DNA of 34,260 nt from Sandaracinaceae bacterium (GTDB lineage: Bacteria > Myxococcota_A > Polyangia > Polyangiales > JADJQN01), in contig CANKOL010000010.1 of NCBI GenBank assembly GCA_947483975.1, positions 1 through 34,260 of the forward strand, given 5' to 3'. Made by a program: the position numbers. Positions 3,001 through 6,000 of the stretch are shown piece after piece; position 1 is the first letter of the stretch; each line of letters starts with the position of its first letter.

Positions 3001-6000
3001 CGTCGAGGGCGCGTGCACGCGGAGCGCCGCGAACCTCGTGATGCTGGACCTCGAGGACTCCATCCCGCGCGGCAACGAGGCGCTGCTCGCGCAAGGTCGC
3101 GCGAACATCGTGCGCGCCTATCGAGAGCTCGACTGGGGCGCGCGGCTGCGCTTCTTCCGCCCGCGCGGGCTCGAGCTCGATCCCGGGCACGAGGACGTGC
3201 AGTTCATCGTCGGCGCGTGCGGGGCGCGCATCGATGGGCTCGTCTATCCGAAGGTCGAGTCCGCCGACGAGGTGCGCTCGCTCGACGAGACGCTGACCGC
3301 GCTCGAGCAGCAGCACGGCCTGCCGCACGGTCAGCTCAAGGTGGAGCTGTTGATCGAGAGCGCCGCCGCGGAGGAGCACGCCTTCGAGATCGCGCAGGCG
3401 AGCCGGCGCCTCGTCGGGCTCGTGTTCGGCGCCTACGACTACTGGAGCTCGCTCGGCATGGTCGGCGAGCCGTACCGCACCGAGCACCCGCTGATTCAGG
3501 GCGCGCGCGCACGCATCGTGAAGGCCGCGGCGAGCGTCGGCGTGCCCGCGATCGCGGAGATGACGCTCAATTATCCGACGAAGGACAAGTCGCCCGCCGA
3601 GCAGCAAGCGGCGCTCGACGAGTGCCGCGCCGACGCCCTCGCCGCCAAGCGCTTCGGCTTCGCGGGCAAGTGGACCGGCATCCCGCAGCAGACCGCGATC
3701 GCCGTCGAGGTCTTCTCGCTCGACGACGCGCTGATCCGGGCGGCGGTCGAGAGCGCGAAGGCCTTCCTCGCCGCCGAGCGCGAGGGGCGCGGCGCCGTGA
3801 TGATCGACGGCAAGATGGCCGACCGCGCGACCGACCGCGTGCACCGCGTGACGCTGCAGACCGCGTACGCGCTCGGCCGCCTCGACGCCGAAACCGCCGC
3901 AGAGCTCGGCCTGCGCTGAAGAGCTGTCGAAAAATGCCCGACAGCGGCTTACGTCCTCACGCAGACCCTGCGAAATACAGGAGTATTCCTCGGGTCTGCG
4001 CTCCGGGCGCGCTCGCTCTCGGACTATTTTTCTACAGCTCTTGAGCTCGCGCACCGCTGCGCGCGACGCTCGACGCCCGGAAGCGCGCGGGCTCAGAGCC
4101 TCAGCGCAGCGCGCGCTTCGATGCGCGTCAGGCGGTGCTCCGTGTCGACGAGAAAGAGATGCTCGTGGTTCTCGGTGTGCGAGACGGCGCCGACCTTCTC
4201 GCCCTGCGGGCTGTAGATGCCGATCTTCGCGCCGACGTAGCGATGGAACGGCACGGCGACCTCGTGCACCACCCCGCGCGGGCCGAGGATCGCGTGGATC
4301 GCGGCCGGCGCGAGGTAGCCCTCGTCGTTGAACGACACCAGCAGAAAGCGCGCGTCGATCGCGTCGATCAGCTGACGAAACGCCACTTCGCCGTCCTTGC
4401 GCCTATTGAACGCGCTCTTGTGAGTGCGGCAGTCGACGCGCTTCCTCGCGATGCCGTACGTCTCCGGCGCGTCCCAGCGCACGAGCGTCTCCCACACGTG
4501 GTAGTTGCCGCGATAGCTGTGCTGGTTGTACGGCGGATCGAGGTACGCGAGGTCGACGCGACCGACCGCGCGCGCCGCCTCCGCCGCGTCGAGCCCGAGC
4601 GCCGCGCCGTCTCCATCGAGCACCTCCGGGAGCCGCAGCGCGAGCGCGTTGTGCGCGCGCTTAGCCCACTGCTTGAGGTACGCCATCTGCACGCCGACGG
4701 TCGAATCGACGCGATCGGCGGCCTCCATCAGCGACACCAGCAGCACCGCCTCGAGCTCGGGCTCGAGCGAGAGCCCGGCGATGCGCTCCCGGATCGCCTC
4801 GATGCGCGCGCCGTTGTCCGGATGAAAATAGCGCGACTCGACGCAGTACGTCTGCGTGAACCAGCCTGCGCGCGGAGCCACCGCGGAGAGCTCCGGAAGC
4901 AGCCGCTCAGCCTCCGCCCGCACGCGGCGCCCATCGGCCTGCACGTAGCAGCGCGCGAGCGTCTGCGCGTAGGTGTTGTGGTCGTTCGCCGTGACGCGCA
5001 GCCCGGCGCGCTTCCACGCGTGCGCGACCCGCGCGGTGCCGCTGAAGAGGTCCACCGCCGTGCGCACCGTCGGCAACGCCCCGACGAGCGAGACGAGGCG
5101 CGGGACGAGCACGCGCTTGCTACCGAGATATTTGATCACTCACCGTCTCCGCGGTGTGACCGTACACGCTGTCGGACGACCGCGGCATACGCGTATGCTT
5201 CGTCGCCTCGATTCACCCGACGTGCACGCCGTGCCCGTCGCAGAAGGGCCCCTGATGACCACGACTCCCACGAACACGGACGCGACGACGAACGCCTCGG
5301 CCAGCCTCCCAGCGACGACGAACACGACGCTCTTCGAGTGGGTCGGCGAGATGGCGAAGCTCACGCAGCCCGATCACATCGTCTGGTGCGATGGCTCGGA
5401 CGCAGAGCGCCGCCGCCTCACCGAGCACGCCGTCGCGACCGGCGTGCTCAAGCCGCTCGATCCCAAGAAGCGCCCCGGCTGCTACCTCAGCCGCTCGAGC
5501 CCGAACGACGTCGCGCGCGTCGAGCACCTGACGTTCATCTGCACGCCGACCAAGGAAGAGGCCGGCCCGACGAACAACTGGATGGCCCCGGCGGACGCGT
5601 ACGCGAAGCTCGGCAAGCTCTTCGACGGCTCGATGAAGGGCCGCACGATGTACGTCGTGCCGTACGTGATGGGCCCGGTGGACTCGCCCTTCTCGAAGGT
5701 CGGCGTGGAGCTGACGGACAGCGTCTACGTCGTGCTGAACATGAGGATCATGACGCGCATGGGGCGCGCGGCGCTCGAGCGCCTCGGTGACTCGAACGAC
5801 TTCAACCGCGGCGTGCACTCGACGCTCGATCTCGATCCCGAGAAGCGCTTCATCTGCCACTTCCCCGAGGACAACACGATCTGGAGCGTCGGCTCGGGCT
5901 ACGGCGGCAACGTGCTGCTCGGCAAGAAGTGCCTCGCGCTGCGCATCGGCAGCTACCTCGGCAAGAAGGAGGGCTGGCTCGCGGAGCATATGCTGATCCT

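Follow-up and report, generated by a model that had tools for sequence, protein, structure and literature searches.

The hairpin element at positions 3920–4041 (plus strand) of the window (the whole stretch of DNA analyzed, CANKOL010000010.1 positions 1–34,260, 34,260 nt, from genome GCA_947483975.1, hereafter G000) is most readily explained as one member of a selfish MITE superfamily that occupies gene ends across the order, with elements of ~125 bp, a shared 75-nt core and many different arms, under strand-specific selection. We put the probability of this reading at about 0.45, somewhat short of even odds. That the element is a MITE is observed directly, in its inverted ends, flanking TGA, near-identical copies, an empty site, and an insertion sequence (IS) with like ends. 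Also observed, and new here, is that the orientation of copies follows the upstream gene and not the target base. Throughout, the plus or sense strand of an element is the strand of its upstream gene.

The window element and its copies in the genome

The relevant features of the window are as follows.

2855..3919, plus strand: upstream gene, HpcH/HpaI aldolase / citrate-lyase-like, 354 aa (Pfam PF03328, E 1.4e-21)
3917..3919, plus strand: left copy of the 3-bp target duplication; this TGA is also the upstream gene's stop codon (sequence)
3920..4041, plus strand: MITE body, 122-nt imperfect palindrome (sequence, folding, BLAST)
3920..3935, plus strand: left terminal inverted repeat, AGAGCTGTCGAAAAAT (sequence)
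3943..4019, plus strand: conserved core, ~75 nt (alignment, RNAalifold, pair counts, covariance-model match)
4026..4041, plus strand: right terminal inverted repeat, ATTTTTCTACAGCTCT (sequence)
4042..4044, plus strand: right copy of the target duplication, TGA (sequence; empty-site logic taken from the C159 copy)
4093..5139, minus strand: convergent downstream gene, D12-class adenine DNA methyltransferase (Pfam PF02086, E 1.5e-30)
31825..31947, minus strand: second window copy, same core (31849–31924) with different arms (BLAST, core HMM, covariance model)
31948..33342, minus strand: gene with an FtsJ-like methyltransferase domain, 464 aa (Pfam PF01728)

The order of parts in the window element is C-TGA (3917–3919)-AGAGCTGTCGAAAAAT ... 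ATTTTTCTACAGCTCT (3920–4041)-TGA (4042–4044)-G, and the 16-nt inverted ends of the 122-nt body are mismatched at only one position. The codon that closes the upstream ORF (2855–3919, plus strand; in-frame GC3 0.98) is the element's left TGA, and the orthologue in a genome of the same genus, G014, terminates at the same codon; on the other side, the stop of the convergent methyltransferase gene lies 48 nt past the right duplication. Four helices make up the core; its internal loops are invariant, the middle stem covaries and the apical loop is variable. The second window copy adjoins the TGA stop (31948–31950) of the FtsJ-like gene in sense orientation and is without a clear TGA duplication.

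BLAST and inspection of flanks place 15 loci on 14 contigs of G000: eight short copies with the same arms, three long copies that carry a 52-nt GC-rich insert, two truncated copies (C74, C71), and two copies with the same core between other arms (window 31825–31947, minus strand, and C327). An HMM of the core returns 14 cores in this genome and no further ones. The seven other short same-arm copies are 94–99% identical to the window copy, and TGA flanks both ends in 10 of 11 full same-arm copies, the exception being C66, with CGA on the right. Of the 14 copies that retain a 5′ end, 13 follow a co-oriented ORF (open for 152–570 codons, GC3 0.85–0.98) whose in-frame stop is the flanking TGA; for the remaining copy, C83, the gene stops 5 nt earlier. 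These upstream genes are functionally unrelated, the carriers being dispersed housekeeping genes. A convergent gene is called downstream in at least 8 of the 15 copies, and some copies lie between same-direction genes. The position of the stop is unchanged in all four orthologue comparisons between G000 and G014. Where the target is a TGA stop codon and is duplicated, the stop is restored and the protein is therefore unchanged. The initial annotation had counted at least 15 copies, 13 of 15 on an upstream stop, and had described them as landing on stop codons without changing the protein; both statements hold, the former as 15 loci and as 13 of 14 among copies with a 5′ end.

Under a null model of random insertion at CTGAG sites with loss of all coding insertions, the probability that a non-coding insertion falls on a stop is 0.30, and that of 13 or more of 14 doing so is 1.5e-6; the gene caller behind these figures is crude and overstates intergenic DNA, and a hand estimate under generous assumptions gives P of ~3e-4 to 0.02. 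Gene calls throughout are crude, with long ORFs and GC3 as their basis, and members of one family cannot be counted as independent copies.

One clean empty site was found, for the C159 copy in G014, where the empty site with TGA duplication reported earlier is confirmed. The same search gave no clean site for the window copy, C327 or C401, whose downstream DNA is not alignable in G014; for C145 it matched the downstream flank only, and for the second window copy it gave no orthologous match. The duplication itself is broader than TGA: among 29 same-arm copies in four other genomes it is TGA in 22, TCA in six and TTA in one, that is, TNA. The insertion site of the G000 family is C-TNA-G, with a 3-bp duplication, and CTNAG is near-palindromic. 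The claim of a MITE with TGA duplication thus stands as to the MITE but not as to TGA alone. Same-arm copies number at least 40 in genome G099.

The IS at C345:1253–2857 is the only element in G000 with matching ends. Its flanks read C-TGA...TGA-G, as in the element, and its terminal 22 nt match the element ends at 18/22 and 16/22 positions (compared by eye); the left end of the window element (3920–3941) agrees with the reverse complement of the IS right end at 18/22. This IS had been assigned to the IS5 family. The like ends are real, but the transposase scores only 15–17 bits against IS5 models and 260 bits (cut-off 270) against its best NCBIfam model, IS1182, with Pfam domains DUF772 and DDE_Tnp_1. 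No intact homologue of this transposase was found in five other genomes, which are incomplete assemblies and four of which are rich in same-arm copies; a 100-aa fragment in G094 is the sole trace among the five. Mobilization by a RAYT/REP system was rejected, because G000 has a single Y1_Tnp gene (C47), the REP arrays on either side of it are of another kind, and the 1 kb around it contains no match to core or arms. A model of adjacent deletion for the left-end anchoring in G000 was also rejected, since the duplications are intact.

The core and its orientation across the order

A covariance model finds the core in 80 of 151 genomes of the order and in 41 of 76 genera, often in at least 30 copies and with roughly 1,000 matches in all; by BLAST it is found in 47 of 201 genomes. 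Of its 24 pairs, 16 change on both sides, a covariation score that 0 of 500 shuffles attain, and 94.2% of core alignment cells are paired versus 77.7% in shuffles. The earlier claim of a ~75-nt core with compensatory changes in half of the Polyangiales is well borne out by these counts. A wide variety of arms surrounds the core, and the stops it accompanies include TGA, TAG and TAA; in other arm families the duplication is CTAG, or the stop codon lies within the terminus itself. Elements are kept at one gene's stop codon in 11 genomes, and at one orthologous locus the compensatory changes pass via A·C on the plus strand, which is G·U on the minus strand. Some genomes hold tandem arrays of the element, and copies also adjoin tRNA genes or lie within rRNA-operon spacers. 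This pairing of variable arms with a conserved core is the reverse of what is usual for a transposase-dependent MITE, and counts against our preferred reading.

The best overlapping match in an Rfam scan of positions 3500–4500, with E up to 10, scored 15.8 bits against a gathering threshold of 58 (E 5.7). A literature search returned no description of this element family, and the term "stop codon" is absent from the MITE reviews examined. SECIS-like recoding or read-through was rejected, as the distance from stop to core (20–29 nt) varies modulo 3 and some of the stops are TAG or TAA; an integron attC site was set aside without a test, given that the center and not the ends is conserved and that the carriers are dispersed housekeeping genes. 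Many copies lie at contig ends, repeats being breakpoints of assemblies, and the element may mislead the annotation of gene ends.

For the counts of adjoining stops, distances were measured from the core; the script that extended hairpins outward over-extended in G+C-rich flanks, in about one fifth of copies. In a sample of contigs, a sense ORF stops 20–29 nt before the core in 27 of the 60 copies with at least 400 nt upstream, versus 8 of 63 for the same bin on the antisense side. Stops located 15–35 nt before the core in this sample are TGA in 17 cases, TAG in 15 and TAA in two; in a large part of the sample, a long antisense ORF terminates no more than ~110 nt from the core. Sorted by adjoining stop, 98 copies comprise 45 with a sense stop only, three with an antisense stop only, 20 with both and 30 with neither; counted by arm cluster, the split of sense-only to antisense-only is 25 to 3. 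The left duplication is the sense stop in 16 of 27 copies, and the right duplication is the antisense stop in two of 23. The stop-codon habit described in the initial annotation is therefore real, but its restriction to TGA is not, since TAG and TAA stops and unrelated arms share it.

Asymmetry of the target, through the central G of TGA, was rejected as the cause of orientation: copies flanked by TCA and TTA exist, and families with palindromic CTAG or with CTGA...TCAG termini share the bias. Among the TCA-flanked copies that could be evaluated, 4/5 still lie 4–16 nt after a sense stop. Replication direction was rejected as the main cause, because a 45-to-3 split is larger than gene-strand bias could plausibly produce and, in the single-contig genome G039, the plus strand is on the leading-strand side in only 24 of 33 copies (73%, with gene strand uncontrolled); the GC skew of G038 was too noisy for use. 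G039 is also the only genome of 50% G+C examined, and none of the 21 distinct copies listed there, of 33 matches, is within 45 nt of a long-ORF stop, nor do its copies show a clear gene orientation. This lack of stop contact is what target availability predicts.

The folding strand and the readings it favors

In 91 of 99 copies the more stable fold is that of the antisense strand. Arm mismatches are G·U-compatible in 157 instances on the antisense strand versus 37 on the sense strand, and the consensus fold of 12 elements at one orthologous stop codon is −80.0 kcal/mol antisense versus −52.1 sense. The window hairpin departs from shuffles by a z of −6.2 on the plus strand and −9.7 on the minus strand. 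C exceeds G on the plus strand in 96 of 99 copies; with purines at only 43.5% of the sense strand, the loops of the antisense strand are rich in them. The description of the element as a "sense-strand 3′-UTR RNA hairpin" is not supported by these tests. The conserved U·G pair offered in its favor is real (94 of 97 distinct cores), but it is invariant sequence, and as an argument about strand it is outweighed by the other counts. Terminator-like and promoter-like sites numbered 0 and 0 on either strand of positions 3700–4300. An intrinsic (Rho-independent) terminator was rejected: there is no U tract, A/T tracts in the arms point either way depending on the family, and copies lie in rRNA-operon spacers. 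Beside tRNA genes, the antisense strand is the one found in the tRNA or rRNA precursor in 4/5 copies, so the element is tolerated in transcripts in both directions.

If these elements are indeed a selfish superfamily, their accumulation at gene 3′ ends may have two sources: in genomes of 65–75% G+C, targets that contain A/T (TNA, CTAG) would largely coincide with stop codons, and selection would purge insertions elsewhere. The sense orientation, which is probably not set by the target, could come from orientation-dependent effects on the upstream transcript, by analogy with ERIC in Yersinia; the strand borne by the mRNA would be the C-rich, less well folding one. Selection may maintain the core for the sake of a folded, single-stranded form of use to the element itself, with recognition or processing during spread, or the binding of a factor, as candidate roles, and the strand tests point to the antisense strand as that form. 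The element is unlikely to be primarily a host-adopted sense-strand 3′-UTR device. Several observations weigh against our explanation, among them the invariant U·G on the sense strand, the lack of an intact transposase in the five other genomes, and the copies adjacent to tRNA genes. In addition, the outer 16 nt of the G000 arms differ at one position, so that a terminating ribosome could hardly sense orientation directly.

It is conceivable, if unlikely, that the core is after all a sense-strand 3′-UTR RNA module adopted by the host, delivered to stops by transposition and kept through selection on the mRNA as a stabilizer, a processing or termination signal, or a protein-binding hairpin. Sense orientation at stops across at least 25 arm clusters, a covarying core in 80 of 151 genomes, the invariant sense-strand U·G of 94 of 97 distinct cores, and retention at the same gene's stop in 11 genomes are all consistent with such a module, and a sense strand richer in C than in G would suit Rho loading. 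However, the strand tests run the other way (antisense folding better in 91/99 copies, wobble counts of 157 to 37, consensus folds of −52.1 sense versus −80.0 antisense kcal/mol), the upstream genes are functionally unrelated, the G039 copies lie off stops with no clear gene orientation, and the element has neither a terminator-like U tract nor an Rfam family. The better folding of the antisense strand, its greater richness in G·U and its purine-rich loops could mean that this strand is the functional molecule as RNA, either as a hairpin that shields the gene 3′ end from convergent transcription or as a processed-out RNA. The convergent downstream gene in at least 8 of 15 G000 copies, antisense ORFs ending within ~110 nt of the core, and the presence of the antisense strand in the precursor transcript of 4/5 tRNA-adjacent copies would fit. 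We nonetheless regard this as quite improbable: copies also lie between same-direction genes without known antisense transcription, positions 3700–4300 hold no promoter-like site, some copies occur immediately 5′ of tRNA genes or within rRNA spacers, places in which a strong barrier would do harm, and the contact of the hairpin base with the stop codon is left unexplained.

Orientation and location might also be set at insertion, by strand-specific machinery that uses single-stranded or hairpin DNA exposed by transcription immediately past the stop codon or by replication, with the better-folding antisense DNA strand as the recognized form and no selection on RNA. Folded as DNA, the minus strand reaches −41.2 kcal/mol, versus −33.5 for the plus; the young family of G000 has 13 of 13 copies in sense orientation, the plus strand is on the leading side in 24 of 33 G039 copies, and a member of the IS1182 family, IS1272, selects hairpins and terminators in DNA as its targets according to the available parts of two reports (PMC4923244; PMC5678879). 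Such a mechanism is distinctly unlikely, however, given ordinary 3-bp duplications at near-palindromic CTNAG, the flanks being TGA in some copies and TCA in others, as a symmetric DDE reaction would predict. Insertions of IS1272 occur in both orientations (PMC4923244, available part), the replication bias in G039 is only 73% with gene strand uncontrolled, and the lone Y1 (single-strand) transposase of G000 has its own, different REPs. A further reading, which we hold doubtful, makes the core a portable "gene-end module", a putative structured nucleic-acid signal that a conserved protein, of the host or of the element, would read on one strand. Transposons of several end-types would install it at stop codons, in half of the sampled genomes, and the orientation rule would reflect a real coupling of translation or transcription termination to the element. 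Candidate couplings are the loading of Rho onto the C-rich sense strand, unfolding by the ribosome that would uncover a nuclease site, and insertion directed by whichever DNA strand is laid open past the stop.

Gene-end hairpins in other bacteria

Hairpin repeats at gene ends are already known in the form of REP, ERIC, Correia and SPRITE elements. What is unusual in the present family is a combination: a core better conserved than the transposon ends; a hairpin base that touches or contains the stop codon, whichever stop that is; and a near-absolute orientation rule tied to the upstream gene, though insertion chemistry allows both directions. Classical terminators are scarce in high-G+C bacteria, and the family offers a natural system for mobile hairpins in relation to translation termination, mRNA decay and transcription termination in such bacteria.

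The MIRU repeats of mycobacteria, also of high G+C, overlap the stop and start codons of flanking genes, are oriented with them, and form tandem arrays. The present elements are alike in stop-codon overlap, gene-matched orientation and, in some genomes, tandem arrays, but MIRUs are direct tandem units with small ORFs and not hairpin transposons. The other systems are compared from partial texts of the published accounts. GTAG REPs and REPINs with RAYT are likewise palindromic repeats that lie 3′ of genes, chiefly where neighboring ORFs run in the same direction or converge, and GTAG REPs often supply the TAG stop codon (PMC3733652). They are, however, 20–40 bp long, with a GTAG or CGTC tag and Y1 transposases, whereas the elements here are of ~125 bp, with inverted ends and a duplication; the REP found on both sides of the one Y1 gene in G000 is of another kind.

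The IS1182 family (IS1272 and TnSha1 of staphylococci) is related through the IS with matching ends in G000, which encodes a transposase of that family, and insertions of IS1272 fall in hairpins and terminators a short way past the ends of genes (PMC4923244; PMC5678879). As described in the available texts, insertion of IS1272 leaves no duplication, removes part of the hairpin that it targets and occurs in either orientation. The G000 MITE, in contrast, is oriented and has a 3-bp TNA duplication. Correia/NEMIS, RUP, BOX and SPRITE are hairpin, MITE-like repeats enriched near gene 3′ ends and between convergent genes, and SPRITE may have been adopted as a terminator (PMC3049150). Their coding-strand bias is weak by comparison, with ~61–63% on the leading strand, and the available part of that paper reports no core conserved across many families of an order (PMC3049150). 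The effect of ERIC on upstream mRNA depends on orientation and has been linked to ribosome-induced unfolding (PMC2229807, PMC3049150, both of which cite De Gregorio 2005). In the extracts available, the ERIC/IRU elements of Enterobacteriaceae resemble the present family as imperfect palindromes of ~127 bp that fold as a hairpin over their whole length, are co-transcribed with flanking genes and have longer forms with internal insertions. The present family differs in its target, which is TNA or CTAG and not the TA of ERIC, in a core that stays conserved as arms are exchanged from one family to another, and in an orientation bias at stop codons that is near-total.

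The window element and its identity as a MITE

The window element lies between two convergent genes, with its left flank serving as the stop codon of the first:

2855-3919, plus strand: open reading frame (ORF) of the upstream gene, an HpcH/HpaI-type enzyme; its stop codon is the element's left TGA
3917-4044, plus strand: the element with its flanks, C-TGA-(122 nt)-TGA-G, as read from the sequence
stop at 4093, minus strand: D12 DNA methyltransferase gene, convergent from the right (ORF and domain search)

The 122-nt body of this copy is bounded by inverted repeats that mismatch at one position, AGAGCTGTCGAAAAAT on the left and ATTTTTCTACAGCTCT on the right. 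Both strands form a single long hairpin whose stability greatly exceeds that of shuffled sequences (plus strand -66.1 kcal/mol, z -6.2; minus strand -76.9 kcal/mol, z -9.7). A promoter and terminator scan found no U tract and no promoter-like site at the element.

The evidence supports identification of the element as a MITE whose insertion at TNA duplicates 3 bp and so restores a TGA stop. The C159 copy of this genome (G000) has a clean empty site in the same-genus genome G014 (...GGC TGA AGCCCC... against ...GAC TGA (element) TGA GCCGCA...), and the stop codon has the same position in 4/4 orthologue comparisons between the two genomes, in keeping with the claims of the initial annotation that a 3-bp duplication is made and the protein left unchanged. 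That annotation took the duplication to be TGA. This is the case in 22 of 29 distinct same-arm copies elsewhere (G099, G094, G047, and G025), but six have TCA and one TTA; the target is therefore TNA and not TGA as such. From the G000 flanks, it is the near-palindromic (G)C-TNA-G(C).

An insertion sequence (IS) with ends related to those of the element is also present:

C345:1253-2857: partner IS, 1,605 bp, with the same C-TGA...TGA-G flanks as the element

Over the terminal 22 nt, it agrees with the ends of the element at 18/22 and 16/22 positions, counted by eye. The related ends and flanks had been recognized previously, but under IS5; the 418-aa transposase scores 260 bits against the IS1182 model (cut-off 270) and matches IS5 models weakly, placing the IS in the IS1182 family. 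It is single-copy in the G000 assembly, lies 25 nt beyond a gene's stop rather than on it, and is reversed relative to TGA, judged by the one asymmetric end position. No intact partner transposase was found in five other genomes, four of them with many same-arm copies; G094 yielded only a 100-aa fragment. Separately, the only Y1 (IS200/RAYT-like) transposase gene of G000 (C47:13735-14442) belongs to a REPtron (L189:997-2177): on either side of the gene, in opposite orientations, lie arrays of another REP hairpin of 27 nt, TGGTGGGGCGGGCCTCCGTGCCCGCCC, with partly 40-nt spacing.

Anchoring at stop codons

BLAST recovers 15 element loci in the G000 assembly (524 contigs, 81% complete): eight short same-arm copies, three long copies each with a 52-nt G+C-rich insert, two truncated copies (C74, C71), and two with the same core and different arms (window 31825-31947, minus strand; C327). 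With a core HMM, 14 cores are recovered, none beyond these loci. The stop-codon-anchored hairpin of the initial annotation is confirmed: in 13 of 14 copies with a 5' end, the flanking TGA closes the ORF of a co-oriented upstream gene (152-570 codons, GC3 0.85-0.98), the exception being C83, where the gene's stop lies 5 nt ahead of the flanking TGA. The carrier genes are functionally unrelated and of housekeeping type.

Several loci have unusual structures. The 52-nt insert, palindromic and located inside the core (C401, C465, C490, C74), has an 87.5% identical counterpart outside any element (C507:2999-3054), and may be a small independent repeat nested in the MITE. The truncated copies (C71:16528-16573; C74:15010-15200) are interrupted at almost the same point of the core (after ...CCTCACG), with coding-like sequence adjoining both breaks, and may represent two sides of one rearrangement or deletion. 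At C327 (L040 ~1900-2110), the DUF58 gene and its successor overlap in G014 by stop and start codon (ATGA). The TGA is directly followed in G000 by the variant-arm element, and an ORF from the ATG of ATGA stays open across the element's full length and continues in frame into the downstream gene, before a signal-peptide-like stretch.

Most copies across the order sample likewise have a coding-like sense ORF with its stop 20-29 nt before the core. In an independent scan sample, sense-side stops occur at 20-29 nt in 27/60 copies and at 30-39 nt in 6/60, whereas the antisense side is flat (8/63 and 6/63). Stops 15-35 nt before the core in this sample comprise 17 TGA, 15 TAG, and 2 TAA, and the stop falls -8 to +4 nt from the hairpin base in 39 of 56 measurable copies. 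Arm families meet the stop in various ways—TGA duplications in some, CTAG duplications in others, and in others still termini that contain the stop paired with its complement (CTGA...TCAG, TAGAG...CTCTA, CTAA...TTAG). In 11 genomes an element sits at the stop of one and the same gene, ending ...NCGNSMGCS*, with two core subtypes and several arm types; at one such stop (L030:1346-1600) two tandem elements differ in both arms and core subtype, which points to repeated insertion at one site. Tandem arrays occur in several genomes (G013:C9:792002-792351; L026:1501-1705; L036:1176-1576; L032:1507-1713; G050:C87:1-167), spaced ~96 to 326 nt, mostly ~130 nt.

CTGAG sites in G000 number 854 at stop codons, 4,283 coding, and 2,010 intergenic, as partitioned by a crude, self-made gene finder (3,449 genes, 77% of the DNA) that overstates intergenic DNA. 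If all coding insertions are lost, P(stop) is 0.30 and P(>=13/14) is 1.5e-6; if promoter regions are also forbidden, the latter could rise, by hand estimate, to as much as ~0.02, so that target choice and purifying selection could explain much of the stop-codon anchoring. In G039, the sole genome of 50% G+C in the analysis, stop-like triplets abound throughout the sequence and 0/21 distinct listed copies lie within 45 nt of a long ORF's stop, which fits this explanation.

The order-wide core and its strand-dependent folding

The core (~75 nt, 3943-4019) recurs with entirely different arms, in 47/201 genomes of the order by BLAST and, with a covariance model built on 31 cores, in 80/151 genomes and 41/76 genera, often with at least 31 matches per genome; the model finds none in G014. 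Scanning 185,579 species genomes for an exact pattern gave at least 80 loci; among the matches listed, 67 have a true core, almost always under a label such as Myxococcota, Polyangiales, or Sandaracinaceae, and 13 of the 80 (Streptomyces and others) are chance matches with no true core. A true core also occurs on contigs L113 and L146, from MAGs assigned to Klebsiella pneumoniae and Acidobacteriota; these contigs are probably mis-binned Myxococcota. The core's four helices covary, with changes on both sides in 16/24 pairs, bearing out the earlier report of a covarying core in about half of the Polyangiales genomes sampled. Paired cells make up 94.2% of the alignment (77.7% in shuffles), slid-partner controls collapse, and the internal loops are nearly invariant. 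Rfam holds nothing like the element, and literature searches yielded no description of it.

The initial annotation also proposed that the core functions as sense-strand RNA, which is not supported. The strand antisense to the upstream gene is more stable in 91/99 copies (mean -76.3 vs. -68.1 kcal/mol), and in 75/99 for the core alone; DNA folding parameters agree (-41.2 vs. -33.5 kcal/mol). Arm mismatches are G.U on the antisense strand in 157 cases and on the sense strand in 37, transversion mismatches in the arms place the two purines on the antisense strand by 157 to 29, and G.U-type mismatches in the variable core helices favor antisense by 39 to 20. One U.G pair on the sense strand is invariant (94/97 distinct cores). 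For 12 elements at the ...NCGNSMGCS* stop, the sense consensus reaches -52.1 kcal/mol with 41 pairs and the antisense -80.0 kcal/mol with 46, many alternating G.U/G-C; intermediates of compensatory change there are A.C on the sense strand (G.U on antisense). The sense strand has C>G in 96/99 copies and is 56% pyrimidine.

Five copies adjoin tRNA genes, some of them within the tRNA-Ile/tRNA-Ala spacers of rRNA operons. In 4/5 the left arm abuts the 5' end of an opposite-strand tRNA, so that the precursor RNA contains the antisense version. Spacer copies include an opposite-orientation pair flanked by tRNA-Ile and tRNA-Ala, in which both left arms reach the end of a tRNA (L091:351-811), and one copy just upstream of tRNA-Ile (L083:448-739). 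Such locations make a strong terminator role unlikely in either direction.

Orientation and comparison with known repeats

The element is asymmetric between its strands, and its orientation is biased by the gene it follows. In the 98 copies flanked on each side by 330 nt or more, stops are abutted on the sense side only in 45, antisense only in 3, both in 20, and neither in 30; counted by arm cluster, sense-only exceeds antisense-only by 25 to 3 (p ~3e-5). In a replicate on same-arm copies, a sense stop forms the left duplication in 16/27 and an antisense stop the right one in 2/23, and 4/5 evaluable TCA-flanked copies sit 4-16 nt past a sense stop. Insertion chemistry thus allows both directions, and direction follows the gene upstream. 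Because TCA-flanked copies still follow the sense stop, target asymmetry is ruled out as an explanation of the bias. Replication direction is rejected as a sufficient cause: in G039 (a single 4.02-Mb contig, C1; origin ~0.7 Mb and terminus ~2.7 Mb by GC skew), the plus strand is on the leading side in 24/33 copies.

We suggest that accumulation at gene ends would follow from target availability and purifying selection, that the orientation bias may, by analogy with ERIC repeats, arise from orientation-dependent effects on the upstream transcript, and that the core might serve the element itself in single-stranded form. In the young G000 family the two arms are nearly identical over their outer 16 nt, which stands against this explanation; so does the conservation of the core above the ends, which is not to be expected of a purely transposase-dependent element. 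The element is of interest mainly for its orientation rule and its strand asymmetry.

ERIC effects are described as depending on orientation and ribosome-induced unfolding (PMC2229807, PMC3049150), and enrichment in the regions separating convergent genes is described for SPRITE, BOX, and RUP repeats (PMC3049150). A member of the IS1182 family, IS1272, is described as targeting terminator hairpins without duplication and in both orientations (PMC4923244; PMC5678879). The element family works like known gene-end hairpin repeats, but differs from them in its conserved core with exchangeable ends, its order-wide spread, and its near-absolute orientation rule.
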